From the UHGV virus genome UHGV-1800104: 25,476 nucleotides of DNA, one strand, 5' to 3'. Positions 1-19,282 of the stretch are shown one piece after another (position 1 is the stretch's first letter; each line of letters starts with the position of its first letter). The stretch comes from a virus. The notes under the pieces are model-generated. The model worked only from the letters and a program-made list of their open reading frames with translations. It did no database searches and was not told where the DNA came from. Made by a program: the position numbers and the translations under genes.

Positions 1-184
1 ACTGGCCTTTATAGTCCTGGGCGATCCCGAAGTTCAGGCAGATAGATTTCGCATGACCAATATGCAGATAGCCATTCGGTTCCGGCGGGAAACGGGTATG
101 TACTGTGGTGTGCTTACCACTGGCCAGATCTTCATCGATGATCTGACGAATAAAGTTAGTCGGGCGGGCTTCTGCCTCACTCAT
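1..184 (-). CDS. glnS: glutaminyl-tRNA synthetase, N-terminal 61 codons; gene continues past the window start
   Basis: Minus-strand translation from ATG at 184..182 reads [61 protein letters not shown], which I recognise as the enterobacterial GlnRS N-terminus with the class I HIGH motif. Absent from the ORF track because there is no stop inside the window. Confidence 0.9.
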
Positions 185-352
185 TGTGGATTCCTCAAAG
201 CGTAAACAACGTATAACAGCGTATGATCTTATAAGCCGAATAGGCTGACAACCACTAGTTGATTAGAAATTGCTTTCTATCGTTATTTCAATAATGAGCT
301 TTTTCATGAAGCCCACTTTTGCGCATAAGTAAATTAATGATAAATGGTACAC

Positions 353-420
353 AATTGGAACCAAAAAGGATGTAAAGGTGCACCAAATTAGTGGTGTATT
401 GGTACACCTTTGGTTCAAGA
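353..420. promoter_or_regulatory. nested imperfect palindrome (ttggaaccaaa...tttggttcaag, with inner ggtgcaccaaat / attggtacacc) between glnS and the partition genes; candidate protein-binding site or bidirectional terminator
   Basis: Inverted repeats are visible by eye. The 11-mer aattggaacca recurs at 1538..1548 upstream of parA, and the 13-mer aaaaggatgtaaa recurs at 4344..4356 upstream of the spanin genes. Confidence 0.3.
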
Positions 421-452
421 CTTTTTAAGTTCTAAAACCAACCTGAAAGACT

Positions 453-740
453 TTATTTTGCTTCCTCAGACTCCGCTAACATGAGGATAGCATGGCGGAT
501 CATATTCAATTTGCTGCGATTATGCTTTTTACTTAACGCATCAAGTACTTGGTACTCGTATTCATTGAAACCAACACGAATAGATTTAAAATCACGTGGA
601 GCGTCCTTATCGAGCACTTTGTTGTCTTCTGGTTGCTCACCCGGCACCAAATCAGCCTTACTGGCAAAATCCTCAATTCGGCGTTCAAGATCGGGGTCTT
701 TTACTTCGGGGGCTTTTACCGATTTACGAGGCTTAATCAC
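453..740 (-). CDS. small partition partner protein (ParG/ParB-like, putative centromere-binding), 95 aa
   Basis: GTG start at 740 overlaps the last codons of the upstream ParA gene and is preceded by AAGGAG about 7 nt upstream on the coding strand. Small charged protein directly downstream of a Walker-type ParA, the usual type Ib arrangement. No specific motif recognised. Confidence 0.5.
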   Translation of the reverse strand: MIKPRKSVKAPEVKDPDLERRIEDFASKADLVPGEQPEDNKVLDKDAPRDFKSIRVGFNEYEYQVLDALSKKHNRSKLNMIRHAILMLAESEEAK

Positions 741-1374
741 TTAATAACTCCTTAACCAACATCTGGATTTCACCTTTAGCTTTCCCGTTGTCCATCTCAA
801 CAACGCCCTTCCCTTCAGCCATGCAATCGCGGTAAACCTTACGATCACGAATGATGGTTTTCAGCAACTTCAGTTGCGGATATTCAGCCAGGTACTCTTT
901 GGCCTCATTAGTTTCATTCACAACCGGATTGGATGGGGCCATTGTTAAGACTGCGAACGCCTTAATGCTAGGATTAGGCATCAGGTCCAAAGCCTCTTCA
1001 AACACTTCAACAAAGTGTGCCAGCGTGTCTAAATCTGGTTGAGATGGTCTGAATGGGACCAACACAATATCTGCAGCGGTTATGCCTGTACGCATCTCTT
1101 TGCTATCGCGCCCGGCTGTATCAACAACTACAAATTCATAACGCTTATCCAGATCGAGAAGTGTTTCTCGAATATTACCAAACTTCTGGACACAATGAAT
1201 TACAGGAGAAACCTCTGCCGTGTTACGGTCAGCTGCCCAGCGGGCAGCTGTTCCTTGCTTGTCTGCATCTAGTAACACTACATCCTTATTTGCGCGGGCA
1301 AGCTCCGCACAGATGTTTACGCTTGTGGTTGATTTTCCACAGCCACCTTTTTGGCTGACTACCAATATAATCAT
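733..1374 (-). CDS. parA: ParA/ParF-family partition ATPase (type Ib, deviant Walker A)
   Basis: MIILVVSQKGGCGKSTTSVNICAELA... carries the KGGxGK[ST] deviant Walker A at the extreme N-terminus, and LLDADKQG follows. I place the start at ATG 1374 (GAGG about 7 nt upstream) rather than the TTG at 1404 given in the ORF track. Confidence 0.85.
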   Translation of the reverse strand: MIILVVSQKGGCGKSTTSVNICAELARANKDVVLLDADKQGTAARWAADRNTAEVSPVIHCVQKFGNIRETLLDLDKRYEFVVVDTAGRDSKEMRTGITAADIVLVPFRPSQPDLDTLAHFVEVFEEALDLMPNPSIKAFAVLTMAPSNPVVNETNEAKEYLAEYPQLKLLKTIIRDRKVYRDCMAEGKGVVEMDNGKAKGEIQMLVKELLSD

Positions 1375-1618
1375 ATCCGTTCCTCGGTGTGATTTTGGTA
1401 TCAAAACGGTTCCAGATAAGAGCCTTTTTGATGCGGGACAGGCTCTATAATGGAGTCATGAATGTTTGGCAAAGTATAACATCAATCAGACCAAATACAC
1501 CTTATATTGCATCCTATTTAACACGAAATCAGCCCTAAATTGGAACCAGATACAAAATTGCACCATAACAGCACCTAACTGGTGCCAGATTAACACTAAT
1601 TAGACACCATTAAGGCAT

Positions 1619-1641
1619 AAAAAAGGCTGCAATTTGCAGCC
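1619..1641 (-). terminator. intrinsic terminator downstream of parR
   Basis: Perfect 7-bp stem GGCTGCA/TGCAGCC with a 3-nt loop, followed on the minus strand by a run of six T, about 20 nt past the parR stop. Confidence 0.6.
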
Positions 1642-1661
1642 TTAAACCAGCACATCTTCTG

Positions 1662-2006
1662 TCAATCAGGTAGAGAGTCAGCCAGATTGCGCGCCGACGC
1701 GCTTTTGGCAACAACTTGCTCCTTCACTGGCTCAATGGAGGCAGGGCGCTCCTCAACCGCAGCTGGTAGTTCCAGGAAGGATGCCAGCATTTTTCGGATC
1801 AGCTCCGGGTTATTGTCTTCGGTCAGCAGGGAAGCCAGTAATCCTGGAAGCCTGCTATCGACTTCTCCCAGCGCAAGCCCTGCCAACAATGCGGTTCTTG
1901 CCATATCGCTATGTTTTTTTATCTTCTCGCTCGCCGCCTTTTCATTGGCATAAGCCTCTGGGCGAAGATAAATCATCACTTTCTTACGTTCCTGAGACAT
2001 GGACAT
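1662..2006 (-). CDS. parR: ParR-like centromere-binding adaptor of a type II (ParMR) partition system
   Basis: Sits immediately downstream of parM in the same orientation. Segments RTALLAGLAL and LLASLLTED...ML match my recollection of R1 ParR (RAALTAGLAL, FLLCELLTKE). Start may be the ATG at 2006 or the one at 2000. Confidence 0.7.
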   Translation of the reverse strand: MSMSQERKKVMIYLRPEAYANEKAASEKIKKHSDMARTALLAGLALGEVDSRLPGLLASLLTEDNNPELIRKMLASFLELPAAVEERPASIEPVKEQVVAKSASARNLADSLPD

Positions 2007-2013
2007 TACCTCG

Positions 2014-2970
2014 TTAACCGATTGCTTTCAGGCCATGAACAAGAGCAAGTTGCGGGTCATCCGCCACGAAGAAACGGTCATCACGAATATTAACTTGCTC
2101 GCGAATTGCATCTGCCACCAGCGGTGCACCACCACCGATCACCATGACATGCGTATATCCTTTAAAGTCGCCAATCACATCAAGAACTCGGGTACGCAGA
2201 CGGTCAATGCTTGCGGCAATGGCCTTTTTCACATCACCAATCGCTGATGGGTCATTGATATTGTCGTTCAGATAATCTTCATCGTGGCGGTTAATAATGA
2301 GCTGATCAACATTGTAATTTGACGTTTCGGTATTGGCCCTTGCAAGTGCTTGCCTTACTTCCCTGGTGACCAGTGATACACCAAGATTCGAATCGCCAAA
2401 AACACGGGAAACTGCCGTCATTTGCCCGGCGACCATTGAAACATCAAGGGTAGTTCCACCCAAATCGATGATAAGAACAGAATGGGCAGGGTTCAGATTG
2501 TCGCACAGGCCAATTCCTGCCGGAATAGACTCCGGTCGTACCGTAACTTTCTTAATCGTGAACACATTGCCTTTATTCAGCGTGACGGGGCGCATAAGGC
2601 TGGCTTTCTTGCGCTCGATGTTATCGAGATTGTATTGCGCGTCGTCGTCGTAAAACTCCGCCAGAGGCAGCGTGACCACAATTTCTACTTCCTGCGGCTC
2701 AATACCGCTTGTCAGCAGGGCATGGTGAACAGCCAGGACGTTAAGCGGGCTGTATTGCCATTCCACGTTATTCGTCGGCAGAACATCTGGCGAGATCAAA
2801 TCATACGAATACTTCTCGTCGTCAATGACATAGTTAAACGGCTTGCCAGCACCAAATGTTGCTGACCATCCGCGCTTAAAGCTGTTAGGACTGATGTGAG
2901 TGCGAGTTTCCCCGTCGTGCTCCCACAGCATTTTGATATTGGTTGAACCATCATCGATAAAAATGCGCAT
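2014..2970 (-). CDS. parM: ParM/StbA actin-like plasmid segregation ATPase
   Basis: MRIFIDDGSTNIKMLWEHDG...HISPNSFKRGW...AVHHALLTSG...IIDLGGTTLDVS...YTHVMVIGGGA tracks R1 ParM closely along its whole length. Start placed at ATG 2970 (GGAG about 7 nt upstream) instead of 2994. Confidence 0.9.
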   Translation of the reverse strand: MRIFIDDGSTNIKMLWEHDGETRTHISPNSFKRGWSATFGAGKPFNYVIDDEKYSYDLISPDVLPTNNVEWQYSPLNVLAVHHALLTSGIEPQEVEIVVTLPLAEFYDDDAQYNLDNIERKKASLMRPVTLNKGNVFTIKKVTVRPESIPAGIGLCDNLNPAHSVLIIDLGGTTLDVSMVAGQMTAVSRVFGDSNLGVSLVTREVRQALARANTETSNYNVDQLIINRHDEDYLNDNINDPSAIGDVKKAIAASIDRLRTRVLDVIGDFKGYTHVMVIGGGAPLVADAIREQVNIRDDRFFVADDPQLALVHGLKAIG

Positions 2971-2994
2971 CTTCTTGCTCCACTTCTGAGACAC

Positions 2995-3200
2995 ATTTGA
3001 GAATCAAAATGTAATTTTAAAAGAGAAGCACCCAAAAATCCACACCAAACGAGACAAAAAAGAGCGCTTGTTGAGTTTATTTTGAGAATATCTTAATCAC
3101 CCACTGAATGATGGCCTGATAGTGAGATTTATTTGAGAATGAATTGAGAATACAAAAATATTCCGAAATTTAACTCTCCGTTTGAATGACGAAATAACAA
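2995..3200. promoter_or_regulatory. parC-like centromere/promoter region with repeated TTGAGAAT motifs, also holding the divergent promoter for the forward operon
   Basis: Exact TTGAGAAT at 2997, 3082, 3133 and 3144, with variants at 3071 and 3182. Pairs are spaced 11 bp apart (3071/3082, 3133/3144), i.e. one helical turn, as in R1 parC iterons. Confidence 0.4.
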
Positions 3201-3236
3201 AGTGATGACAATAGGAGGATAACCAGGAGGTGAAGA

Positions 3237-3521
3237 ATGAGCGCAATAGCCACCAGCGACACCCTTTGTTCTGGTCACGGAGGATTTCCGCCGCGACTGG
3301 TAGCTGAAACCGTTCCCTGGTTCACCGTTAACGGTAAGCCAGTTGTTGTAGATGGTGCCATGTTTCCCAGTCACACTGACGGTAACAGTGCACACCCAGG
3401 GGCAGCTGTATCGACGCGAGTATGGTTTTCGATAGGTGGAAAGGGAGTTGTCTGTGTAGGCGATCCGCTTTCTTGTGGTTCTGTTATCGCCAACGGCGAG
3501 GATATTTTTCAGGTTGCATAA
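3237..3521 (+). CDS. PAAR-like small protein (possible spike-tip protein), 94 aa
   Basis: Strong RBS GGAGG about 5 nt upstream. Contains NGKPVVVDG and VCVGDPLSCGSVIANG, resembling the xARVGD...C...G and G.PTV.I.G elements of PAAR proteins, although no literal PAAR tetrapeptide is present. Confidence 0.4.
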   Translation: MSAIATSDTLCSGHGGFPPRLVAETVPWFTVNGKPVVVDGAMFPSHTDGNSAHPGAAVSTRVWFSIGGKGVVCVGDPLSCGSVIANGEDIFQVA

Positions 3522-5484: not shown

Positions 5485-5877
5485 TCATTGTCGCCATGCA
5501 TTTTTTAACTCAGGAATATCTGCCATTTCAATTAACTTGCGAAGTCCAGCACTGACTTTCCCATTGCCAACCATAGCAAGCCAATCTCTTACAGCTTTCG
5601 GCATGTAGAGCGTTGCAGTTACCGGCTCTTCAACCCTGGCAGGACATCCGCATACAGGCCATTTAATTGATTCCATAACTTCGGATGCCGGGGTGAGGGC
5701 GGGGACATTGAGTATATCTCTACCAGAAAACTGGATAACGATCCGTTCAGCGAGCGAGAGTATCTCACTTTCGGCAAGAATTGATGCCAACTGCGCCTCA
5801 ACAAGAAAGCGACTTGTTGTGTTCAGAGAGTGGCTCTTAGCGCCATTTTTATACGAAACAAAGATTCGATACGCCAT
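5485..5877 (-). CDS. hypothetical protein, 130 aa (first gene of an opposite-strand cassette); C-terminal segment may be DNA-binding
   Basis: Intact ORF reading away from an AT-rich intergenic region (5878..6035). C-terminal PKAVRDWLAMVGNGKVSAGLRKLIEMA has a helix-turn-helix-like look, which is weak evidence. Confidence 0.5.
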   Translation of the reverse strand: MAYRIFVSYKNGAKSHSLNTTSRFLVEAQLASILAESEILSLAERIVIQFSGRDILNVPALTPASEVMESIKWPVCGCPARVEEPVTATLYMPKAVRDWLAMVGNGKVSAGLRKLIEMADIPELKNAWRQ

Positions 5878-6035
5878 AACTCTAATGATTTGTGTTAGAA
5901 AACTAAAATTAAATCACATAACAACATGCGTGTTAATAGATTTTATTTTACTAAACCTATTGACTAAATCACAAAGTAGGTATTGTTAGCCCGTCAAAAG
6001 AACCTTCACGCCGCGCCCGAATTTAGGGCTTAACC

Positions 6036-7733
6036 GTGAATAAAAACATTCAGCCAGCTCGTGATCGCGAGCGCGAGATTATGAATCGGGCGGCAAGCGT
6101 CATGGCTATGACCGTCGATCCGACCACCGATGCAGCAGGCAACATGATTGCTGACCAGGCAGTAATGATGGAAAACCTGGATAAAGCAATCCAGAAAGTG
6201 CCTATGTTTGAAGGCGTAAATCCAGAGGTCGCTCGTCAGATCACTGGTGGGTGGGCTATGTCTCTGCATGAGTATAAACGTCAACATGGTCATTACCCGG
6301 CAAGTGACATCCTGGCGAACGCACACATGGCTCTTGAACGCCTGATGACTGAATGTGCCAGTGATACCCATGAAGGCACGGGTAAGGCAATGTTTGAGTC
6401 TGTCGCGCAATCAATGCGTAGCTCTGACGGCGTAATGAAAGTTGCTCAATATGCTGCTCTAATTCTGCCTGCCTCTCTGGGCGCTGCTACCAGTGATGCC
6501 TGTACTTTTGTTCCTTGTGATCGTGACGAGTCAAATATTTATGAACTGGTCAACGTAGCAGGCACAAAATTCGGCACCTTCAAACAAGGTGACGAACTGA
6601 ATATGCAGTCAGCTGGTGTTTATTCTCAAATGAAGCGCCTGTATACCCTTTCCACTAAAGGGGATGGCAGCACCAAAACCTTCCAGTTCGACATCCAAAA
6701 TTTTGAGGGACAATCCTGCCCGCTTCGCGCTGGTTATAACAAACTGCTGATCAACCGCAAACCGTCCAAAGTTGACGACGGCGATGGCAACCTTTATTTC
6801 AATGCTAAAGACAGCAAAGGTAATGCTTTCTCAGCGACTGCCAAAGTTGCCTATGACACTGGTGTCATTGACATTACATTTACCCAGGCTCCGCCAGAAG
6901 GTACTGAAATTGCTGTTCAGGTCGAAATTAACATCGAGCGCAATCCAAGCCTGATTCCTGTGATCAACCAGGCTATGCGTAAGTACGAAGTTCGTCCGTC
7001 CCAGTACGTAATTGCTTCCGAACACACGGTAATGTCCGCATCCGATTTAAGCCGTGAGCACGGCCTTGAATTAGCGGCACTTCAGTTCTCCGCGATGCGT
7101 AACTGGATCTCCCATGAAACCGACATCATGCGTCTGCGCACCCTGGTATTCCATACCGTTTATGGTCGTGAATTTGATGTGGCTCTGCCGGAAGCTCAAA
7201 ACTATGAGTCCTGGGTCGGCCTCCTGCGTCACGTAGTAAACGCTCTGTCTCAGGAAATGGCAAATCGTACCCTGACAACGGGGATTCGTGGCGGCTTTGC
7301 TGGTGGTGACGCCGCGAACTTCCTGCGCTCTCTGCCTCCACAGCACTTCCAGATCGCACCAGGTTACGTTCAGTCGCCGTATGTACAGTACATCGGCACC
7401 CTGTTTGGCACGATTCGTATTTACGAAGTGCCGCAACCTGTCTGTGAGCAATTCCAGGCACAGGGATATGACTTCGGGCTGGATGACATCTTCTTCTATG
7501 GGCGTGGCGAAGGCATCGGTAAAGCCGGTCTGATTGCTGGTGATGCAGTCCCAGCAATCCCTTACGTGCACGAAACCAATCCGTCTCTCGTTAACCGTAC
7601 CACTCTCTGGGGCAGTGCCATCAACGAAGTGCATCCTCGCAACGGTGAAAACTACTTCACCCGCCTGCGTCTGACTCGTGCCAAAGAAGGTGCTATCGAC
7701 ATGCTGACAGGCAAGGTTAACGAAAAAAAGTGA
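6036..7733 (+). CDS. major virion protein, 565 aa; putative major capsid protein with a charged N-terminal delta-like region
   Basis: Long ORF at the head of the forward structural block, just upstream of an Ig-like protein gene and the sheath gene. Charged, helix-prone N-terminus. Start is GTG 6036 (AGGG upstream) or ATG 6081. The capsid assignment is by position and size only. Confidence 0.35.
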   Translation: MNKNIQPARDREREIMNRAASVMAMTVDPTTDAAGNMIADQAVMMENLDKAIQKVPMFEGVNPEVARQITGGWAMSLHEYKRQHGHYPASDILANAHMALERLMTECASDTHEGTGKAMFESVAQSMRSSDGVMKVAQYAALILPASLGAATSDACTFVPCDRDESNIYELVNVAGTKFGTFKQGDELNMQSAGVYSQMKRLYTLSTKGDGSTKTFQFDIQNFEGQSCPLRAGYNKLLINRKPSKVDDGDGNLYFNAKDSKGNAFSATAKVAYDTGVIDITFTQAPPEGTEIAVQVEINIERNPSLIPVINQAMRKYEVRPSQYVIASEHTVMSASDLSREHGLELAALQFSAMRNWISHETDIMRLRTLVFHTVYGREFDVALPEAQNYESWVGLLRHVVNALSQEMANRTLTTGIRGGFAGGDAANFLRSLPPQHFQIAPGYVQSPYVQYIGTLFGTIRIYEVPQPVCEQFQAQGYDFGLDDIFFYGRGEGIGKAGLIAGDAVPAIPYVHETNPSLVNRTTLWGSAINEVHPRNGENYFTRLRLTRAKEGAIDMLTGKVNEKK

Positions 7734-7846
7734 TGGTGGCGAACGTGTCGGTATCACCAACGTCACTTGACGTAGATGAAGGTGAAACTATCGCCGCGAA
7801 CACTTCAAAGGCACAGAAAAAAACAAAGCAGAAGTAAGGCAAAAAC

Positions 7847-7867
7847 ACGCCCCTGAATAAGGGGCGT
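7847..7867. other. GC-rich stem-loop between the 565-aa gene and the Ig-like gene
   Basis: ACGCCCC / GGGGCGT 7-bp stem with loop TGAATAA. A run of five A precedes it, so on the minus strand it would read as hairpin plus T-run. Confidence 0.35.
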
Positions 7868-7880
7868 TCAGGAGAAAAGA

Positions 7881-8159
7881 ATGGCAAACATTCAAGTAAC
7901 TATCACGCCATCTGACGCAACAGACAAATCTTTCACTGTTGAGTCAGATCACCCTGAAATTGTCCAGGTTGATGGCACTACATGTACCGCTCTTAAGGCC
8001 GGGCAGGCAGTGCTGACAATCAAAACAAATGACGGCAATAAAACCGCACAGTGCACAGTCACTGTTAGGGAGGCACCTAAAAGCGTAAGCGCCGTCAGTG
8101 TTGAACCAACTACGAAAGAAGTAACCGTAGGCGACAACTTCACGGTAAGCGAATCCTGA
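7881..8159 (+). CDS. bacterial Ig-like (Big_2-type) domain protein, 92 aa; candidate virion decoration protein
   Basis: AGGAG RBS. TITPSDATDKSFTVESDHPEIVQVDGTTCTALKAGQAVLTIKTNDGNKTAQCTVTV has the Big_2 pattern. The C-terminus (VSAVSVEPTTKEVTVGDNFTV) looks like the start of a second Ig repeat cut by the stop. Confidence 0.6.
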   Translation: MANIQVTITPSDATDKSFTVESDHPEIVQVDGTTCTALKAGQAVLTIKTNDGNKTAQCTVTVREAPKSVSAVSVEPTTKEVTVGDNFTVSES

Positions 8160-8163
8160 TCAG

Positions 8164-8190
8164 AGGCTGCCCATTAACCGTGGGTAGCCT
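8164..8190 (+). terminator. stem-loop after the Ig-like gene, possible weak terminator or attenuator
   Basis: AGGCTGCCCA / TGGGTAGCCT 10-bp stem with one G-U pair and loop TTAACCG, followed by a pyrimidine-rich tract (TGCCTCGTTCTCTCGCTTT). Confidence 0.3.
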
Positions 8191-9929: not shown

Positions 9930-10664
9930 ATGAAAAATTATACTGCTGATCCTTTTATGCGTGCGATTTTCGGTTCTGGCTGCTTTGAAAGCGGTGATAA
10001 ATCCACGCAGGACAATAATGATAACGCCATGCTGGAAAGCGCAGGACAGAAAGGGAAGGACACTCAACCAAAGCCCAAAGACGACATTGAAACCGCAATG
10101 ATGGAAGCGGTTGAATCCCGTGCACAAGGTGATATGCGCAGCCTGGCAGCTTCCATGCTTGCTGGTTGGGTTGAAGATGGTGATCCGGAGGCTGACTCAT
10201 TTGATGCATTAGCAATCACTATGGCTGGTCTGGCTGATATCGATGAAGACACCGATTTCACCGATGAGCAAATCGATGCTTATAACGATGCTCTCGCAGC
10301 TCTTGCTGATGCAGCTGTTGCGCTTGGCGCTGATCAGGACGATGTAACCGAAATGATCGACGATGAAGATGACTCAGCTGCCGAACGTGTTTATGACGCT
10401 CTTTCCGAAAGCGACACCGACATGATGGAAACAGCTATTGCCATTTACACCGTTGCTGGTGGTGATAGCGCAATGCTGGAAGCGGTACGTAAAAAAGTGG
10501 TTCGTGATGGCAAGGTTACCATCATCCGTAAACGCCCGCGTCCTCGCCGCATGACGTCATTGCAAAAACAGGCGCTGAAAAAAGCACGCCGCAAAGCACA
10601 TACATCCGTAGCGAATATCAACCGCAAAAAATCAATGCGCATTCGCAAAAAACGCGGTTTGTAA
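9930..10664 (+). CDS. bipartite protein: strongly acidic body with a polybasic C-terminal tail, 244 aa; function unknown (scaffold-like or DNA-mimic-like)
   Basis: ATG at 9930 with AAGAGG about 7 nt upstream. Body dominated by D/E (DIDEDTDFTDEQIDAY, DDEDDSAAERVYD); last ~55 residues are Lys/Arg-rich (IIRKRPRPRRMTSLQKQALKKARRKAH...RKKSMRIRKKRGL). Confidence 0.6.
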   Translation: MKNYTADPFMRAIFGSGCFESGDKSTQDNNDNAMLESAGQKGKDTQPKPKDDIETAMMEAVESRAQGDMRSLAASMLAGWVEDGDPEADSFDALAITMAGLADIDEDTDFTDEQIDAYNDALAALADAAVALGADQDDVTEMIDDEDDSAAERVYDALSESDTDMMETAIAIYTVAGGDSAMLEAVRKKVVRDGKVTIIRKRPRPRRMTSLQKQALKKARRKAHTSVANINRKKSMRIRKKRGL

Positions 10665-10713
10665 GTGACATAGGCCGCCTGCAAAGGTGGCCTCTACCTG
10701 GGAGAAATAGCGT

Positions 10714-11304
10714 TTGATTTGCGGCGCGATAATGCCTGACGGAATAAGTCCGTTAATGAAGGTTTATATCCTCTCTTCAGAGGATATGGTCGTCGGTTAT
10801 ATCGGTGAAGGATCTACCGCAGAACTGTCATCAATGTGGCAATCACCATTTGAAAACCAGTCAGTAGGAGGTTTGCTTGGCGGTATTAGCGCTGCGGCTG
10901 GCTCTCTTGCAGATACGCTTCAGACCGCAACCGGCGTAACAACAAAAACCCTCTTCAACTCAATGCTTGTTTGGGAAGGTCAGCAACCGCCTGAATTTAA
11001 TCTGGTAATTGATTTCATGGCGACAACGAACGCGCAACTTGAAGTGAACGCAGCCATTACAGCATTGCTGAAGATGGAATCGCCGGAACTGAACAATGTA
11101 GCGCCATTCGGTCGTCGCCCGGAGACAGTAACGTTAAACATAGGTAGGAACATAGCCCTTACCGACGTTGTTATCAAAAGCGTGAGTTACCAACTGGACG
11201 CCCCGCGCACACCGGAAGGCTATTTCACTCATAACACGGTAACCCTGCAATGCAGCGGTAACACATCGATCAACCGTAGCAATATCTCATCTGTTTTTGT
11301 GTAG
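10714..11304 (+). CDS. hypothetical virion protein, 196 aa
   Basis: ORF in the structural block between the acidic protein and the putative tube gene. Start uncertain: TTG 10714 (GGGAG about 9 nt upstream), ATG 10732 or ATG 10756. Confidence 0.5.
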   Translation: MICGAIMPDGISPLMKVYILSSEDMVVGYIGEGSTAELSSMWQSPFENQSVGGLLGGISAAAGSLADTLQTATGVTTKTLFNSMLVWEGQQPPEFNLVIDFMATTNAQLEVNAAITALLKMESPELNNVAPFGRRPETVTLNIGRNIALTDVVIKSVSYQLDAPRTPEGYFTHNTVTLQCSGNTSINRSNISSVFV

Positions 11305-11312
11305 GAGTATTT

Positions 11313-11804
11313 ATGTCCGGTTTTGCAAATACAAAAGCCGATATGGCCTTTCTAAAATCCCGGTTTAATAAAAACCTGGCTGCAGGCGAAAAACTTATTG
11401 GTTCTGAATATTGGATGACCATTAAGGGTTACGAACATCTGTCTGTACTAGTTCGTACAGCTCAGTTACCAGAAATGACACGTGAAGATGTGGAGGATTA
11501 CGCCCCTGGTGGCATGAAATTCAACCAGCACGGACCATTACGCAACTCTGGTGAATTTCAGGTCACATGCGCGGAAACTATCGAAGGCGCAGTTCTCGCC
11601 GCTGTAAAACAGATGGTATACGGAAAAGAATATCTGGAAATTACCTTACAGGCGGCGGCTGAATCGAATAGCGGTAACCATAAAGGTCTGATCCGCACAT
11701 ATTCTCATTGCAAAGTGTATTCCGACGCCGTGGACTTCTCATCCGAAGACGTAACGGCGGTCGTTAAACCTTCTCTGCGCATTGTTTACAACTGGGCGGA
11801 ATAA
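11313..11804 (+). CDS. putative tail tube protein, 163 aa
   Basis: AGGAG RBS. Size and position near the sheath gene fit a tube protein; the C-terminus (...RIVYNWAE) loosely recalls the C-terminus of the T4 tube protein as I remember it. Assignment is tentative. Confidence 0.35.
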   Translation: MSGFANTKADMAFLKSRFNKNLAAGEKLIGSEYWMTIKGYEHLSVLVRTAQLPEMTREDVEDYAPGGMKFNQHGPLRNSGEFQVTCAETIEGAVLAAVKQMVYGKEYLEITLQAAAESNSGNHKGLIRTYSHCKVYSDAVDFSSEDVTAVVKPSLRIVYNWAE

Positions 11805-11858
11805 TCCCTATCCCGCCCTTGTGGCGGGAACATCCTTGTTATTGAGTTGTAGGCAACA

Positions 11859-12410
11859 ATGACACCAATTGAATTATTAGAAAGCGTTAAAGAGCGATTT
11901 AATCCACTGCTTGTGCGTGAAGAAGAAACGTTGAAAGCATTCCTGATCAAAGCTCTGACCACGTATCAGGACAGGGCAGGGGTAGTGAAAACGTTAAAAC
12001 TTGAAAAAGCTGGTGGTACTGCAATTCCGTTGCCAGAAGATTATCTCTCTCTGGTTCATGTTACCGACAACAACGGCCTGTTGGTCTATTCGGATGAATT
12101 ATCCGGATTTATTGAATTAGAGCTAACAGGTTCAGAACGCTGGCCTTTACGAATGCTGTATCTGGTTAACCTACGCGACAGAAAGCTGGATGAATGGCAA
12201 GTGCCTCCTGCAATCATTGGAATGCTGGAGGAATATCTAGAGGCGCTTATCAATGTAAGAAATGTCGCTCGGCAGCGTAGAGCGTCCATCGACGGGAAAT
12301 TTGACTACTCCGATCTGCCCGATGAAGCCACGCTATATGCCCGCGTGCAGGAGATTGAGGAAAAAATGTCCTCAAACCGGGCCATTATTCCGGGGGCTAC
12401 CATTTTTTAA
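11859..12410 (+). CDS. hypothetical virion protein, 183 aa
   Basis: Intact ORF co-oriented with the structural block; preceded by a GC stem-loop (11811..11829). No family recognised. Confidence 0.5.
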   Translation: MTPIELLESVKERFNPLLVREEETLKAFLIKALTTYQDRAGVVKTLKLEKAGGTAIPLPEDYLSLVHVTDNNGLLVYSDELSGFIELELTGSERWPLRMLYLVNLRDRKLDEWQVPPAIIGMLEEYLEALINVRNVARQRRASIDGKFDYSDLPDEATLYARVQEIEEKMSSNRAIIPGATIF

Positions 12411-12425
12411 CGCTGGAGGCGCAGA

Positions 12426-13133
12426 GTGAGTATTTTCAGCAGCGTTGGTAGAACGTTGACCACCGCATTGTCATTTAACACGAAATCATTCACCAGCAAC
12501 CTCATTAGCGACATTCTTGATAAAGCCATATCAGGCGGCGGGGTAAGCGGGAATTACAGTAGCGATATTGCCTACGGGAAAAATATTGTTGCTGCCGCTA
12601 TGCGTATCCGTTACGCCCAGGGGTGGCAGTGGACCGTTGAAGTGGATGGTCTGAACGGCTTCGATATGTTCGTGAAGGATATCACCTACAGCAGTGGGAA
12701 CATCGAGACAGAAAGCAAGGTGATCGGCAGCGTAGAATTCAGCAAGCCAACCTATGTTAGCGCCGGACCGGTCACTATGACCGTGAGGGATACCGAAGAT
12801 GGCAAGATCATGGACTGGTTCAAAGAGCGTCGTTCTCGTGTAACAAATCCTGATGGAACAATAAACCTTCCTCCTGAATATCTGATGAAAATCCGTGTCT
12901 ACCGGGTGACTCAGGACGGCGGAAAAGAACTGGAAGAAGAAATGCGCGTATTTCCTACGCAACTTGGGGAAATCACACGCTCACGTGATCAGGTGTCAGA
13001 GTTCTTGTCATACCCAATCACTTTCCAGAAATACACATCCGCAGGCTCAGGTGTTTCTGCTTTGGTCAACGGTGCCGCTGGCATGGCTACAAGTGCGTTA
13101 AAGGGGGCTGTGAGTGGAGTAATCAAATTCTGA
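12426..13133 (+). CDS. hypothetical virion protein, 235 aa
   Basis: GTG start with GGAGG about 6 nt upstream; last gene of the forward block before the replicon. No family recognised. Confidence 0.5.
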   Translation: MSIFSSVGRTLTTALSFNTKSFTSNLISDILDKAISGGGVSGNYSSDIAYGKNIVAAAMRIRYAQGWQWTVEVDGLNGFDMFVKDITYSSGNIETESKVIGSVEFSKPTYVSAGPVTMTVRDTEDGKIMDWFKERRSRVTNPDGTINLPPEYLMKIRVYRVTQDGGKELEEEMRVFPTQLGEITRSRDQVSEFLSYPITFQKYTSAGSGVSALVNGAAGMATSALKGAVSGVIKF

Positions 13134-13222
13134 ATAGCTTTAATTATGTGTGCTGGAGGGTTGCTCATTTCCCGCCAGCACCCACGCCCTCAACGATAGC
13201 GGGTAGGGAAGGTAGCGCAATT

Positions 13223-13518
13223 TTGAGGGCATTTTTTACATCATCAATTCATCTGTAATGAAGGCATTCTTTACACATTTCAATAATATCAATCAGTTAA
13301 CACAGTGAATGATAATAAAAAAGCGCAATAAGAATGCACGATACGCACGATATTGGTTGAGGGCGATTTTTACATAGTCCTTACATATCAATACGTTATA
13401 TAAAAACACAACTTGCTAATAACAAGATACATGCAATTAAGATGTAAAAATTGCCCTCAATTGCCGATCGTTAAGGGCAAATTCTACACCTTGAGAGGGG
13501 TGTAAAAATTGCCCTTAA
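13223..13518. repeat. iteron array downstream of the initiator gene (about 20-bp units, mixed orientation); candidate copy-control locus
   Basis: Units matching TTGAGGGCAAATCTTACACC: direct at 13223..13242 and 13357..13376, inverted at 13441..13460, direct variant at 13471..13490, inverted at 13499..13518 (overlapping the initiator stop codon). The spacers are AT-rich. Confidence 0.7.
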
Positions 13519-14303
13519 GACTGCTGATAGGTAAATTTTATCCTGGTAACTTTGCCGCCTTCCGTCACCTCTGAGAAGACTATTTTCATTTTTGTATTTT
13601 TTTCAATCTCTGCTACAGCCTTCGTTAAAAAACTTCTCTTAAATTCGGCATACCGCTGATAGCTTTTTGGTAACCCATAACGCTCCCGCATCCATTCGAC
13701 GCCAAGTATGGCAAAGCCGCTTCCATCATCCTTCCTGTACTGGCATAAGGACTCATAAAGCCGCATAGAATAAGGATTTGTAAGGCGAGATACTTCGGTA
13801 AAATTCAGCCTTGTGAATCTCTTATCAAGCAGAGTAAAAAACGGCATGAGATATGGATTAAGATGAATAATGTAAGTCCCGCGCCGTGGTGAATAGGCAT
13901 CCTTAATCATCCAAGGATAAGACTCATAACTGTCTTCTGATTCGGTCGATTCATCAGGGTTATATATCGTAACTTTCTTCTCGCTAAGCCCTGAAATGGC
14001 CTTACGAATATCCTTGCTGGCTTCAGCAGAGGGCAAATTATACATCTCTGCATATTCGTTGACCGTCAACTCACAGGCACCTGAACCAAGAACGCCATCC
14101 TTAGAAGCATAGCGAAGTCTTCCCACCACAATAAACAACAGTCGCTTTTGGTCGCGAGTCAGGTGATAAGCAGCCTCCGTGATCTCATTGGCTTGTGCCA
14201 AACTACGACTAATAGGTGTCGCTGACTCAATCAGGCTGACGGCTTTTGCTGTTAATTCCGCTCTGTTCATAACCCTGTGTGATCCTTCAAATGGTGAGGG
14301 CAA
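13515..14303 (-). CDS. repE: RepE-like (F-plasmid RepFIA-type) iteron-binding replication initiator
   Basis: ITEAAYHLTRDQKRLLFIVV, AEASKDIRKAISGL, SYESYPWMIKDAYSPRRGTYIIHLNPYLMPFF and TNPYSMRLYESLCQYRKDDGSGF closely match F RepE as I remember it. Flanked on both sides by iterons. Start is ATG 14270 or TTG 14303, which lies inside the first iteron. Confidence 0.85.
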   Translation of the reverse strand: MPSPFEGSHRVMNRAELTAKAVSLIESATPISRSLAQANEITEAAYHLTRDQKRLLFIVVGRLRYASKDGVLGSGACELTVNEYAEMYNLPSAEASKDIRKAISGLSEKKVTIYNPDESTESEDSYESYPWMIKDAYSPRRGTYIIHLNPYLMPFFTLLDKRFTRLNFTEVSRLTNPYSMRLYESLCQYRKDDGSGFAILGVEWMRERYGLPKSYQRYAEFKRSFLTKAVAEIEKNTKMKIVFSEVTEGGKVTRIKFTYQQS

Positions 14304-14412
14304 TTTTTACATCACTTTGAGGGCAATTACTACACCTTTTGAGGGCAAATCTTACACCTTTTGAGGGCAAATCTTACACCGATCGTATTTAATTGAGGGC
14401 AAATCTTACACC
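14294..14412. repeat. five direct iterons upstream of the initiator gene (origin and autoregulation region)
   Basis: TTGAGGGCAA(A/T)T(C/T)TTACA(C/T)C units at 14294, 14317, 14339, 14361 and 14393; the first four are on an exact 22-bp period. The core TGAGGGCAA resembles the reverse complement of F iterons (TGTGACAAATTGCCCTCAG) as I recall them. Confidence 0.8.
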
Positions 14413-14439
14413 AGCCTCCTCTACAGCCCGCGCCACTAC

Positions 14440-14554
14440 TGGCTCCAGCGACGCCTAAAAAGGATCTAAAAAGGATTAAAAATGGAAAAAGGTTTATAAA
14501 AATACTCTGTGGATATGTGAGTAGCGTCACTTAAGGTGTAAAAATCACCCTCAA
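14440..14554. promoter_or_regulatory. origin-associated AT-rich tract with 11-bp CTAAAAAGGAT tandem repeats, a DnaA-box-like site and one inverted iteron
   Basis: CTAAAAAGGATCTAAAAAGGATTAAAAATGGAAAAAGG at about 14455..14492; TGTGGATAT at 14508..14516 matches 8 of 9 positions of the DnaA box (TGTGGATAA); inverted iteron GGTGTAAAAATCACCCTCAA at 14535..14554. GATC sites at 14281, 14381 and 14463. Confidence 0.55.
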
Positions 14555-14658
14555 TAATCGCTTCTCGACCGGCAAAGATCTTCATTCAATCCCCATCGCA
14601 AATCACACACTCCCTATCCTCTGGAAAATGAACAGATACCTGCTTTTCGGAGGAATAC

Positions 14659-15480
14659 TTGAACATTCCAAAATTCCCATTGCCTTCCCGTCCTGAGACA
14701 GAAATTCAGTTCCACGCCCCTACCGTGAAGGATGCGCTGAAATATTCTGACCTGAACCCGGCAGAAGATGAGGCAACTACTACAGAGTACCTTAACTCTA
14801 TGCAGGATGGTGAAATTAACGACAGTGCTAACTGGACAGTTCAGGATCGCAGAACTGCTCTTTGGTGGATATTTGTTAATTCGCGCCCCGATGCAGTAAT
14901 GACCTACTCCTATGAGTGCAGTCACTGCGGTAATACGCATCATGCAGATATTAACCTGAGCGACCTGGCCCAAACAGTAGAAATACTCACCGTACCTCCT
15001 TACGTGAAAACCAACGTACCAGTAAATGGAGTACCAACAGACTGGATACTTAAACCATTAACCGGGAAAGGCGCGGAACTCCTTGAACGAATGCGAGCGT
15101 CACTTCCTGATATGAAAAGCCCCGAATACAGTGCTGGCGTGGCACGGATGCGGATTGCTGAACTGGCTTTATGCACGGCGCTTGAAGACGATCCGGAGGA
15201 CTTCACGCAGGCCGCTAACCGACGCTTTGACATTATTGAAAGCATGGCGCTTGAAACCGAGTTTACACCGCTTGTGGCTCGCATACAGCTTATGCAAAAA
15301 GACCTACGCCACGGCCTGAAAATGTCTATTGAGAGAGGCGCAAGCCGACTGATCCTGCCTCCGCAACATTGCAAAAACGCTAAGGAGGGTGCAGATGTGA
15401 CAACCACACTGTACGTCCCCTTTCTCAATAGAGAGTTTATCCCATCAATTAGATCTGAATGGATGGCTAACCATTATTAA
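14659..15480 (+). CDS. hypothetical protein, 273 aa, upstream of the tape-measure gene; contains a CSHCGNTHH Cys/His cluster
   Basis: TTG start with GGAGG about 5 nt upstream. Its position before the tape-measure gene would suit a tail assembly chaperone, but no motif supports that. Confidence 0.5.
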   Translation: MNIPKFPLPSRPETEIQFHAPTVKDALKYSDLNPAEDEATTTEYLNSMQDGEINDSANWTVQDRRTALWWIFVNSRPDAVMTYSYECSHCGNTHHADINLSDLAQTVEILTVPPYVKTNVPVNGVPTDWILKPLTGKGAELLERMRASLPDMKSPEYSAGVARMRIAELALCTALEDDPEDFTQAANRRFDIIESMALETEFTPLVARIQLMQKDLRHGLKMSIERGASRLILPPQHCKNAKEGADVTTTLYVPFLNREFIPSIRSEWMANHY

Positions 15481-15494
15481 CAACCTGACTCTAT

Positions 15495-18400: not shown

Positions 18401-19277
18401 GGCGACTTCGTTTGGTTCTATATCTTCGCTTTCCGAAAAAGCGAAAGGAATGGATCAGGCTCTTACTGAAAAGATATCCAGCTTAACCGGTAAATCTTTT
18501 GGATTTCAAAAAGCAAGCCAGGTAACTGATATAAGAGACGCTTTACAAAAAAGACCAAAAGCTGAACGCGATATGCCTTCAGTGGATCTTCTTTCCGGTG
18601 TTTCTTCGGCAAGTGAGAGTGAAAAAATCTCTGTAAACTCAAGGGGGATTCCAGTTTATGACAATGGATACAAGGTAATTGATGGTGAAGATAAGGGGGT
18701 GCTTGGCTCTTTGTTTGACTCGTCATTAACAGGTCTGAAACGTATTAGCTCTGCTGTGTTACCTGCAATTGGCGATAACGTTTCACAACTTATTGGTGGG
18801 GTAGATGGCACAGGCATTGTTAATGATTTGGTTTATCAGGCTACTGGGCAGAACTCAACAATTGCCAGGGCTATTAGCCCGCTTACCAAGAGCGCCGGTA
18901 GTTGGCTGAATAATGGTATTCAACAAACCGCAGATAGCATTAGAGGTATATCAAACGAAGCCAATAATGCCATATTTGGCTCTGCGTCAGCCGTGCAAGA
19001 ACCTTTTCTTGCTATGCCACCACAGCTTCCTACTGTAACAGATCTCGCACGAAGCGGAATAAGACAACCATTAACTACTGACACTATAAATAACGATCCT
19101 GCTATGTTGAAGGCGCTGGATAACATCTGCTCTATCCTGAACGACCTTCTGAATGTGAACAAGAACAATACAAAAGGCGATCCGGATAAGGTTGTCAAAA
19201 CATCGCAGCCGCAACCGCGACCACGTGCTAGCACAACTATTAATGACCCGTCGCTGGATGCTCTGCTTGAGGATTAA
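15495..19277 (+). CDS. tail tape-measure-like protein, 1260 aa, with an embedded globular domain
   Basis: Very long ORF just upstream of baseplate genes. Lys/Ala/Gly-rich helical regions and hydrophobic Gly-rich segments (GVGAGGPLWMAARG, AVPIIGSLAMAGYDAIDG). An internal block (NRNYRNNNLGNLVFANQEG...SKWAPPKENNTNQYIDNVSKYLGV...ATKEGGNP) looks like a folded domain, possibly cell-wall-interacting. Confidence 0.65.
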   Translation: MDISPLATLNNYRNGEHSICQKPWKKNTKLKLGNVDRAGKREVILKENKDRIAIIDAIQEASTNELKALAEVKDAILSGASTITQQDERQGRVSNRLSRRRKDYEQSTSDSVRDVQTNPYKKRLPAKKERAPINQTVDRSIVATNTPESVRSVQSRQTIRKSDGFIPVAANSAPLEPQSPQSLKGPLRDSNGRFVSQKSNEDVARKKELQNARKADAKLQAGFLRKLGSIMGVDGNQSSSEESLTNAAGVGAGGPLWMAARGMYDITKEITGKAESLKEWVEKGKKETSTSKAISPVITYPAAVNSQKSTSAKAFNNAVETKSAQAVEEQTKILQTNDNKIIDGLENVSDEIVKLRKSVSSGNKFGLSDLWKNRASRRNKINIGDRAGKNKRNKSKRKGRNLGKKALSVGEKVAAGSAAAGTGVGTAKAVKNKISKPKDVSTISDTSKGIAKETKNTAKAVKSAGVVAEDTTIKTGEAIAKKKTESVALKSAAKIGVKSAASTAARAVPIIGSLAMAGYDAIDGYTDTEAQKAAFGLSDDDAVSEQQKTAYATANVLDMGGLVSGATNLIGKGISALGFERAGEKLQNFDTGDIARGVNGAVDITKSVFGSLKDTFLSTDENTKQVKKAVEDGTKKTVDAIHSLGEQLQGGRDGEDGVGEHGYTSPAEFNAPASNTIAADLNIGGSNAKNRNYRNNNLGNLVFANQEGAALEAPNAKGEQRFARFNTPEEGIRALANQVSSYYNGTSAAAGYQKLQTVSSIISKWAPPKENNTNQYIDNVSKYLGVSPNEKIDVSNPEVMTQLVRAIATKEGGNPAVNNEFIKNALGAFNTNTGRWEGQFSDETLARINKIQKENGGQLIARDSQYSVGRKVKYANGKSPAQPVLNAVPTATQQPIEVAQHAQAVKKPQKTGNQSQPINPENVDVNTGSPSSLLERLIAINDSGVGNLFGGAATSLAGTSLGLIKDFASATSFGSISSLSEKAKGMDQALTEKISSLTGKSFGFQKASQVTDIRDALQKRPKAERDMPSVDLLSGVSSASESEKISVNSRGIPVYDNGYKVIDGEDKGVLGSLFDSSLTGLKRISSAVLPAIGDNVSQLIGGVDGTGIVNDLVYQATGQNSTIARAISPLTKSAGSWLNNGIQQTADSIRGISNEANNAIFGSASAVQEPFLAMPPQLPTVTDLARSGIRQPLTTDTINNDPAMLKALDNICSILNDLLNVNKNNTKGDPDKVVKTSQPQPRPRASTTINDPSLDALLED

Positions 19278-19282
19278 TACAG

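Follow-up and report, generated by a model that had tools for sequence, protein, structure and literature searches.

The locus analysed here raised the question of why the beginning of a housekeeping gene, glnS, lies directly beside a plasmid-type partition operon and phage genes. The window (the whole stretch of DNA analysed, 25,476 nt of the virus genome UHGV-1800104) opened with the 5' end of glnS on the minus strand, followed by the partition operon and the phage genes, and all of these features, described in an initial annotation, were confirmed at their coordinates (Table 1). Three explanations had been put forward: an element integrated just upstream of a chromosomal glnS, a plasmid-borne element that had captured chromosomal sequence, or a chimeric contig. 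The comparisons reported below favour the second: there was no integration junction in the window, glnS was cargo of a phage-plasmid, and positions 1-452 were in all likelihood the interior of a circular, D6-like, P1-related phage-plasmid.

Features at the glnS end of the window

The glnS start codon and the stop codon of orf61 (position 453) were 268 bp apart, and the translated residues of glnS included HIGH and DYKGQ. The plasmid glnS promoter was predicted from consensus match plus conservation: both hexamers and the Shine-Dalgarno sequence were conserved with respect to the chromosomal glnS promoter, and a Dam site (GATC, 225-228) lay inside the predicted -10 box. Repression of the E. coli glnS promoter by Dam was described by Plumbridge and Soll (1987), as reported in PMC12369378. 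The dam gene adjoining glnS was a pseudogene in the window-identical plasmid.

Table 1. Features of the glnS end of the window and the replication gene, with the basis of each assignment.
Feature	Position	Strand	Basis and details
glnS, first 61 codons	1-184	-	Translation; homologue of D6 orf62; start codon 184-182; gene runs past the window start
glnS leader and promoter	185-272	-	Homology with chromosomes, promoter scan; Shine-Dalgarno GAGGAA 196-191; predicted -10 GATCAT 228-223; predicted -35 TTGTCA 251-246
AT-rich filler	273-344		Between captured promoter and partition locus
Repeat cluster GGTRCAC / TGGTACAC with 13-bp inverted repeat	345-413		Repeat search; inverted repeat 374-386 / 399-411
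95-aa ORF (D6 orf61)	453-740	-	ORF list; annotation in D6 and plasmids
Type Ib ParA partition ATPase, 213 aa (D6 orf60)	733-1374	-	NF041546, Pfam
Second partition system (D6 orf58, orf59): ParM/StbA actin-like ATPase and StbB	1662-2970	-	Pfam; ParM/StbA 2014-2970, StbB 1662-2000
Rep3-type RepA	13515-14270

The AT-rich filler was confined to glnS-bearing D6-like plasmids, and in glnS-less relatives the matches to the window began at position 455. No match to the sequence from 273 to 454 turned up upstream of glnS in 80 species-representative gammaproteobacterial genomes, or in any PLSDB plasmid outside the D6-like group, and a junction probe containing the filler (262-455) matched 98 PLSDB records only, all of them D6-like.

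The repeat cluster, situated just downstream of the small partition gene (orf61), held three of the seven GGTNCAC sites of the whole 25-kb window inside 62 bp. Related TGGNNCCA motifs were present upstream of parA (at 1541 and 1580), and a glnS-less plasmid carried TGGCACCA and GGTACAC at the equivalent place. The segment had an RNA fold z of -3.0, and an Rfam search of positions 1-3300 (E<=1) detected no known RNA element, including in the 185-452 interval. This segment may be a centromere-like site, the terminator of the parA operon, or both.

The ParA protein matched the NF041546 ParA_partition model with an E-value of 8.5e-48 and 162.6 bits, which is below the model cut-off (180 bits), and its scores for the Pfam families CbiA and AAA_31 exceeded their cut-offs. 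The orf61 product, with no match in Pfam or NCBIfam, is the presumed centromere-binding adaptor and downstream partner of ParA because of its position in the operon. The second partition system was identified with Pfam: PF06406 and PF21523 with E-values of 1e-55 to 1e-69, and PF10784 with 3e-11. P1-like genes for capsid, sheath, tube, baseplate and tail fibres were found downstream of the partition genes, so that plasmid replication and partition genes and a myovirus structural module occurred in the same element.

Replicon context and joins with the chromosome

By sequence comparison, the window was collinear at 100% with closed circular E. coli plasmids of approximately 92 kb: positions 1-3000 were 100% identical to these plasmids, in which glnS was complete, and positions 1-24107 were 100.0% identical to the closed plasmid NZ_AP022217.1. 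Phage D6 (MF356679) had the same gene order, 97% of the window aligning to it with 98.5% identity. The circular records matching the window measured 87-97 kb, and the partition region was present in 101 of 5,426 complete E. coli genomes; each of the 101 occurrences was on a plasmid and none on a chromosome. The window's family corresponded to an autonomous circular replicon of around 90 kb and not to an integrated element. In these replicons glnS was flanked on one side by the ParA-type operon and on the other by a dam/dmt methylase gene, and its far side was phage-plasmid DNA in the closed plasmids and in D6 (dam/dmt, rdgC, baseplate genes and higBA).

D6 and the D6-like plasmid prophages (pYU39_89) showed the same junctions and the same order, dam/dmt - glnS - orf61 - orf60 (parA-like) - stbB - stbA, with 98.1% identity to D6 over a 3.2-kb region; the difference with D6 was one of allele, and lay mainly in the 3' 650 nt of glnS. 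Phage P1 (Punavirus) is not known to carry glnS. It resembled this element as a circular low-copy plasmid prophage with a myovirus structural module, a Cin-invertible tail-fibre segment and homologues of dmt and hrdC/rdgC, but nucleotide matches were restricted to the tail-fibre segment (about 4% of the window), the D6 partition ATPase resembles, in its published annotation, just the C-terminal third of P1 ParA, and the D6-like element has a ParM/StbAB system besides ParA. The carriage of glnS by D6-like phage-plasmids is already published: glnS is reported from all D6-like genomes, which also carry 4 tRNA genes, and is regarded as a moron (PMC6799933, where Gilcrease and Casjens 2018 is cited for glnS in these genomes).

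A prophage integrated beside the chromosomal glnS and carrying its recombination functions at the opposite end was refuted for this sequence family. The window alone ends at codon 61 of glnS, and what lies beyond is invisible in it; moreover, the gap-free draft contig L103 (GCA_042709895.1) ran from parA-orf61 through a hybrid glnS to chiP-fur-seqA-pgm, and the 4.69-Mb contig L097 (GCA_019584115.1, VDAT01000001.1) carried the element internally. However, the 5' allele of L103 was unlike that of the window (8 differences in 380 nt), 24.1 kb of the window were collinear with closed circular plasmids, the complete genomes contained no chromosomal occurrence, and D6 is a known plasmid prophage. 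The absences reported in the initial annotation were verified: there was no integrase at the glnS end, ARAGORN found no tRNA in the window, and no k-mer of at least 14 nt from 185-460 recurred in the window, shorter matches being at about the level of chance. Its description of glnS as chromosomal had to be abandoned: the 184 nt of glnS in the window and the promoter were plasmid-specific, being 100% identical to the plasmids vs. 93-95% to each of approximately 5,420 E. coli chromosomes.

The third explanation, a plasmid contig wrongly joined to the chromosome during assembly, was likewise refuted for this junction. In carrier cells glnS is a two-copy repeat, and other draft assemblies do contain plasmid/chromosome joins at glnS that are artefactual or hybrid: scaffold SQKP01000065.1 had 10-N gaps at the plasmid/chromosome joints beside glnS and ran at its far end from tail-fibre genes through a glnS fragment to nagE, and other contigs changed replicon inside shared tail-fibre cassettes. 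Against a chimera in the window, the same junction recurred, base for base, in dozens of plasmids that had been closed independently and came from different hosts and countries, as well as in D6, and the junction probe recovered it from the 98 PLSDB plasmids mentioned above.

Capture and mosaic structure of the plasmid glnS

The remaining explanation, a plasmid-borne element which had captured chromosomal sequence, was supported by the extent of the homology. The full plasmid gene (1,662 bp, 553 aa; 6523-8184 in NZ_CP027309) was also complete in D6 (orf62), and homology to the chromosome was limited to a segment of approximately 1.75 kb (NZ_CP027309 6527-8272), 96-97% identical to E. coli glnS and missing in the sister lineage. 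Upstream, the homology to the chromosomes of E. coli and other enterics stopped 76-88 bp before the ATG, the leader being 88.5% identical to that of E. coli. In the empty-site relative pPSS-08-1_2, 137 bp replaced an insert of 1,972 bp (from the dam stop to the orf61 stop) comprising the ORF, 88 bp of chromosomal promoter/leader and approximately 180 bp of other sequence. About 24 of the 101 related plasmids in complete E. coli genomes were without glnS; the gene is therefore dispensable for the replicon.

The glnS cassette is not an attachment junction but in all likelihood a classic moron, a cargo gene with promoter and terminator of its own. As in other phage morons, a host-type gene lay between two conserved backbone genes, was missing in pPSS-08-1_2 and other relatives, and differed in GC content (52-57% vs. 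42-48% in the backbone). Its own promoter and flanking terminator are predicted; for the latter, a GC hairpin and, after it, a T run could be read from the alignment between the glnS and dam stops. The gene differed from other morons in being a full aminoacyl-tRNA synthetase gene with 96-97% nucleotide identity to the host gene, close enough for continued recombination with the host copy. There was apparently a single capture from an Escherichia chromosome, because the junctions were the same in all copies examined, a basis other than a rooted phylogeny. The captured cassette was a tight one: it ends only a few nucleotides from the glnS stop codon and includes, upstream of the ORF, 88 bp of the gene's native promoter and leader. 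It occupies the intergenic space that separates the parA-orf61 operon from the convergent dam/dmt gene.

The plasmid alleles were compared with the chromosomal ones by distances and site patterns. Twenty differences were fixed between plasmids and chromosomes, of which 12 fell at nt 87-369 and the other 8 within the final 13 alignment columns (1656-1668). Between them (nt 370-1655) there were no fixed differences and 27 shared polymorphisms, and in a PHI-like permutation test none of 1000 permutations was as extreme as the data. The first 380 nt of the gene differed at 20-22 positions from the E. coli chromosomal alleles and, together with the promoter, were near-invariant among plasmids (0-1 differences, except for the RL465 type). 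A 468-bp 5' probe found identities of at least 95% in 77 plasmid copies only, chromosomes being at 90-95% and two at 80-90%, while with a 3' probe the chromosomes formed a continuum with a maximum of 98.2%. The first 380 nt or so and the promoter thus constitute, as judged from these alignments, a distinct Escherichia-level allele present on no E. coli chromosome. E. ruysiae, the one Escherichia species besides E. coli that the comparison covered, was no nearer to it as a possible donor, having 24 differences in 380 nt (vs. 20-22 for E. coli).

The 3' part of the gene behaved differently. The window allele differed from D6 at 25 positions in the 3' 650 nt, but at one in the first 380 nt, and over nt 1001-1655 D6 and pSL26_91 were 3-5 nt from the chromosomes of C600 and EDL933 vs. 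21-25 nt from the other plasmid alleles. These site patterns showed that the 3' two-thirds of the plasmid gene had been repeatedly overwritten by host chromosomal alleles, as would occur by gene conversion; the plasmid copy recombines with the chromosome because 1.7 kb of homology is shared. In Salmonella hosts, whose chromosomal glnS is about 15% diverged, probably too much for efficient conversion, the plasmid copy was still intact and E. coli-like. The mosaic structure of the plasmid glnS is possibly a new detail.

The plasmid GlnRS and its possible roles

The window itself holding 61 codons, the enzyme was analysed on the complete gene of a window-identical plasmid. The full-length protein scored 1067 bits with TIGR00440 glnS (cut-off 425.8), contained the three GlnRS Pfam domains (the catalytic PF00749 and two anticodon-binding domains, PF03950 and PF20974), and kept the signature motifs HIGH at residue 41, within the window, and VMSKR at residue 268. 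With respect to the K-12 enzyme there were five substitutions, V97I, Q106K, I112V, D510E and V552L, and the loss of E554. Twenty-seven full-coverage PLSDB records were listed, and glnS was annotated as an intact CDS in all but one of them, which was frameshifted. The glnS of pSa1423-90k, considered as a deep plasmid lineage, was frameshifted with many alignment gaps, probably a sequence error, and was dropped. The possibility raised in the initial annotation of a diverged, non-functional copy on a plasmid was right as to the plasmid only: the plasmid GlnRS is intact and looks functional.

An extra, expressed dose of GlnRS is the most likely role of the gene, as suggested by the near-identity of its product to the host enzyme. 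The gene would be transcribed from its own sigma-70 promoter, with the Dam site in the predicted -10 box, to give a GlnRS with around five conservative residue differences from that of the host, which would add to the GlnRS of the lysogen and, as the copy number climbs, to that of lytic growth. A variant with a new specificity is unlikely. A special lytic demand for Gln-tRNA was unsupported: glutamine made up 3.8% of the residues across 24 proteins of the window, with no enrichment.

A complete housekeeping synthetase gene duplicated on a plasmid, with the chromosomal copy kept, is also known from pBT1 of Salmonella Typhimurium D23580, where the cysS-encoded CysRS is biochemically weaker and yet in use, as established by transcriptomics, proteomics and Tn-seq, the chromosomal gene being intact but down-regulated (PMC6785131). 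With this precedent, the analogy drawn in PMC6799933 and the promoter retained by the plasmid copy, glnS could be a maintenance (addiction) device, the essential function passing to the plasmid copy upon shutdown of the chromosomal one. This is unlikely: in every carrier examined the chromosomal glnS was intact and its promoter region normal (2015C-3108 and Ec-050-T20-ESBL retained intact copies, excluding loss of the gene, and chromosomal copies were present in essentially all of the 5,426 complete E. coli genomes), two partition systems and higBA are already present on the element, and the D6-like GlnRS, known here from its sequence, hardly differs from the host enzyme, in contrast to the CysRS of pBT1, which is less active.

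The gene may also be a neutral passenger kept by gene conversion from the essential chromosomal copy, a rather improbable reading, albeit the best placed of the alternatives to a dosage role. Conversion tracts from chromosomal alleles were demonstrable, about a quarter of the related plasmids lack the gene, and no phenotype is known (PMC6799933). The dN/dS values of 0.01-0.03, obtained for every plasmid/plasmid and plasmid/chromosome pair, are no proof of selection on the plasmid, because chromosomes in which damaging changes had already been removed supplied much of the variation, and conversion alone could preserve the ORF. Against neutrality, the 5' 380 nt and the promoter were unconverted, yet intact and near-invariant, the cassette was trimmed almost exactly to promoter and ORF, the CDS was intact in the listed records with the exception of the one frameshifted (probably a sequence error), and the copies in Salmonella remained intact and E. 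coli-like despite the divergence of the chromosomal gene.

Extra copies of aminoacyl-tRNA synthetases can give resistance to inhibitors (mupirocin and ileS2, for example), and some toxins phosphorylate synthetases, such as HipA acting on GltX. These general precedents would allow the plasmid GlnRS to be a resistant or decoy variant against a toxin, a defence system or an inhibitor of GlnRS or tRNA-Gln. Such a role is very unlikely: the changes with respect to the host enzyme were conservative only, two of them (I97 and V112) are the usual residues in Salmonella and/or Citrobacter, and the 3' two-thirds were freely swapped with host alleles.

Beyond the dosage role, there is a small chance that glnS serves in addition as a 1.7-kb "homology handle" for continual exchange with the chromosome, with the Dam-sensitive -10 box as a further layer. 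If so, the conversion tracts would have been left by frequent pairing, and a single crossover would now and then produce a reversible cointegrate at glnS, for which L103 is a candidate; these cointegrates could mobilise or transduce the nag-glnS-fur-pgm region. More speculatively, a Dam-sensitive -10 box near the phage Dam gene could tie the output of GlnRS to the methylation and replication state of the element.

A housekeeping gene beside partition and phage genes was, in this case, phage-plasmid cargo and neither an integration site nor a misassembly. The two copies of glnS yield scaffolding artefacts and hybrid contigs which pipelines could misread as integrations, and the low dN/dS of such cargo genes alone is no evidence of selection on the mobile element. 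Few cases of a complete, host-identical aminoacyl-tRNA synthetase on a temperate phage-plasmid are clearer than this one; the glnS-bearing phage-plasmid spreads among E. coli, Shigella and Salmonella, and the mosaic pattern of its glnS is a natural record of recombination between phage-plasmid and chromosome.

The replicon at the glnS junction

The window opened with the 5' end of glnS on the minus strand and switched, within about 270 bp of the glnS start, to a partition operon followed by phage genes (see table); beyond the ParM/StbB pair lay P1-like capsid, sheath, tube, baseplate and tail-fibre genes. All the sequence features recorded in the initial annotation were present, including the lack of recombination signals at this end: no integrase was detected at the glnS end, no tRNA genes in the window, and no repeats of the junction sequence within the window beyond chance level. 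The RepA gene lay amid the block of tail genes, with the tube gene and pmgB on either side (cf. D6 orf42), and four copies of TGAG-N5-TTTGAGAAT (2987-3151) upstream of parM resembled parC-type iterons for the ParM/StbB system.

Features of the glnS end of the window, and the replication gene
Feature	Position (nt)	Strand	Remarks
glnS 5' end	1-184	-	first 61 GlnRS residues including HIGH; by translation
Complete plasmid glnS	window 1-184 plus 6523-8184 of L001 (locus of plasmid NZ_CP027309)		alleles in plasmid/contig loci L002, L087-L089, L094-L103
Shine-Dalgarno GAGGAA	196-191		kept in the captured upstream piece
Predicted -10 GATCAT	228-223		identical in E. coli; includes GATC
Predicted -35 TTGTCA	251-246		identical in E. 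coli
Spacer, glnS start to orf61 stop codon	to 453		268 bp
AT-rich filler	273-344		
GGTRCAC / TGGTACAC repeat cluster	345-413		with 13-bp inverted repeat; downstream of orf61
orf61	stop at 453		95 codons; distal gene of ParA-type partition operon
ParA	733-1374		NF041546 E=8.5e-48, under that model's cut-off; Pfam CbiA and AAA_31 over theirs
ParM/StbB pair	1662-2970		beyond ParA in gene order
RepA (Rep3-type replication initiator)	13515-14270	-	

Among closed circular plasmids of E. coli, several about 92 kb long matched window 1-3000 at 100%, and plasmid NZ_AP022217.1 was 100.0% identical to window 1-24107. Identity to the closest plasmids ended at about 24.1 kb, inside a tail-fibre gene, the residual 1 kb or so being the Cin-invertible tail-fibre segment; the break at 24108-25476 is compatible with the Cin-invertible C segment and with exchange of fibre cassettes. 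The P1-related plasmid prophage of Escherichia phage D6 showed 98.5% identity across 97% of the window, and its orf62 is annotated as “glutaminyl-tRNA synthetase, similar to E. coli GlnS”. The glnS of these replicons was complete (1,662 bp, 553 codons) and had phage-plasmid genes on its far side (a phage dam/dmt methylase gene, rdgC, baseplate genes and higBA), so the window begins inside a gene internal to the element.

Three origins had been proposed for the junction: integration of the element just upstream of chromosomal glnS, a chimeric contig, or capture of chromosomal sequence by a plasmid-borne element. The partition region (window 280-3000) was found in 101 of 5,426 complete E. coli genomes, on a plasmid in all 101 and on the chromosome in none. 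A 5' probe (the first 380 nt of glnS plus the promoter) matched 77 plasmid-borne copies at 95% identity or more and chromosomal copies at 90-95%, save two records at 80-90%; from this split, the window holds the plasmid allele. Carriers also kept the chromosomal gene: it was present in 2015C-3108, whose plasmid is identical to window 1-3000, and was intact in Ec-050-T20-ESBL, where it encodes the K-12 protein. As for a chimera, the same glnS/par junction was common to dozens of closed plasmids and the D6 genome, and the spacer (262-455) occurred in 98 PLSDB plasmids, every one of them D6-like. Integration and chimera are therefore wrong. Capture is right, since chromosomal homology was bounded to glnS and its upstream region and relatives with an empty site exist; it is also already published. 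PMC6799933 regards D6-like glnS as a moron (a cargo gene with its own promoter and terminator) and states, citing Gilcrease & Casjens 2018 for this point, that all D6-like genomes have it. Because glnS was present in about 77 of the 101 plasmids with this partition region, “all” is true of the D6 lineage proper and untrue of a sister lineage.

Most contigs found in a survey of public assemblies with the window's ParA and tail-fibre assembly protein retained the plasmid context. SQKP01000065.1 carried chiP and the 3' end of glnS, a 10-N gap and rdgC, that is, gaps at plasmid/chromosome joints, and at its far end tail fibre S', a glnS fragment and nagE; this arrangement resembles insertion of an element at chromosomal glnS but was probably produced by reference-guided scaffolding. 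A gap-free 47-kb contig (DAXKOX010000034.1, locus 10001-20642) ran from parA-orf61 through a hybrid glnS of 554 aa (nt 1-1000 of plasmid type, the last 655 nt and the stop of chromosomal type) into chiP-ybfN-fur-fldA-seqA-pgm; either a genuine cointegrate, formed by one crossover within glnS, or a chimeric assembly would account for it. The 4.69-Mb contig VDAT01000001.1 had a D6-like region at 1.63 Mb with plasmid-type DNA for 10 kb on either side of glnS; possible causes are integration at another site in the element and a wrong join of long reads. In some draft contigs (L107-L109) the shared tail-fibre cassette, where identity to the closest plasmids ends, marked the passage into chromosomal prophage sequence. 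None of these hybrid or artefactual contigs matched the window allele.

Boundaries of the captured segment

Homology to the E. coli chromosome began about 4 nt within the 3' end of glnS and stopped 68-88 bp before the ATG (window 252-272); the ORF was 96-97% identical and the 87 bp preceding it 88.5%. The C-terminal codons read ...AKVGE* in the chromosome and ...AKLG* in the plasmid. In the glnS-less sister lineage (e.g. pPSS-08-1_2) the flanks were 91-93% identical and enclosed 137 bp, versus 1,972 bp in glnS-bearing plasmids, a length difference corresponding exactly to the gap from just past the dam stop to the orf61 stop (window 455). The GC content was 52-57% in glnS versus 42-48% in the backbone.

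Motifs similar to the repeats at 345-413 occurred at the corresponding place in the glnS-less plasmid, and related TGGNNCCA motifs upstream of parA (1541-1587). The repeats probably belong to the partition locus, as a centromere-like site and/or operon terminator, rather than to the captured DNA; the small partition protein may bind both these repeats and the parA-upstream motifs.

The glnS gene was tail-to-tail with a phage Dam-type methylase gene (5656-6474 in the NZ_CP027309 locus), with a GC hairpin with T runs, read from the alignment and lying outside the window, between the convergent stops. The form of the methylase gene differed between relatives, some of which encode 301 aa and others a 762-aa Dcm-Dam fusion; in NZ_CP027309 it is a pseudogene. 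According to the account in PMC12369378, the E. coli glnS promoter is repressed by Dam methylation (Plumbridge & Soll 1987), and dam deletion raises it 2-fold.

Mosaic structure of plasmid glnS

Five plasmid alleles were compared with six E. coli chromosomal alleles and E. ruysiae. Of 20 fixed plasmid/chromosome differences, 12 fell at nt 87-369 and 8 in the last 13 alignment columns (1656-1668); nt 370-1655 held none, and 27 polymorphisms common to plasmids and chromosomes. Over nt 1-380 the plasmid alleles were 0-1 nt apart, or 7-8 nt where the RL465 type was involved, positions 285-324 of which are of chromosomal type. Every compared E. coli chromosome lay 20-22 nt away from them, and E. 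ruysiae 24 nt. With E. coli and E. ruysiae themselves 20-21 nt apart, the 5' part is a third lineage at between-species depth. Between nt 1001 and 1655 the alleles of D6 and of pSL26_91, a Salmonella plasmid, were 3-5 nt from the C600/EDL933 chromosomes and 21-25 nt from other plasmid alleles. None of 1000 permutations was as extreme in a neighbouring-site compatibility test, and in the full genome set a 3' probe gave a continuum of chromosomes up to 98.2% identity, the 5' probe being sharply bimodal.

By these allele comparisons plasmid glnS is a mosaic: about 380 nt at the 5' end and the promoter are plasmid-specific, at between-species divergence, and the 3' two-thirds have polymorphisms in common with E. 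coli chromosomal alleles, to which they are nearly identical in places, indicating repeated conversion by the host chromosome. The simplest reading is one old capture, as suggested by the shared junctions, and then repeated gene conversion of the 3' two-thirds from host chromosomal alleles. No description of this pattern was found in the literature searched. The glnS of pSa1423-90k was frameshifted, with many gaps and 90% identity to the window allele, probably through error-prone sequence rather than gene decay.

A putative second GlnRS

Against the glnS equivalog model, whose cut-off is 425.8 bits, the complete GlnRS reached 1067 bits; all three Pfam domains were present and the HIGH and VMSKR motifs intact. 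Its only differences from the K-12 enzyme were V97I, Q106K, I112V, D510E and V552L and the absence of the final residue; Salmonella and/or Citrobacter normally have I97 and V112. Pairwise dN/dS was 0.01-0.03, a value that gene conversion from the chromosome makes weaker as evidence of selection on the plasmid, and a neutral passenger repaired by such conversion is one of two main rivals to the dosage model given below. The other is a maintenance role like that of pBT1: PMC6799933 offers, as speculation, a benefit to the fitness of the host or to plasmid maintenance, on the pattern of pBT1 cysS, where, unlike this near-copy of the host enzyme, the plasmid enzyme is the expressed one and is less active (PMC6785131). 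No follow-up on D6-like glnS was found in the literature. The phage proteins encoded in the window were not glutamine-rich (3.8% Gln), and the spacer had no known RNA element (Rfam, E<=1, window 1-3300).

To the published account the present analysis adds the exact insert boundaries, the empty site, the mosaic pattern left by gene conversion, and a promoter with a Dam site beside the phage dam gene. As the enzyme is nearly identical to that of the host, an effect of dosage is more likely than either a changed specificity or a resistant form. The likeliest model is that these plasmids carry a second GlnRS gene that is transcribed autonomously, is functional and acts by dosage; the structure is shown by the sequences, and the function, an inference, has somewhat less than an even chance of being as stated.
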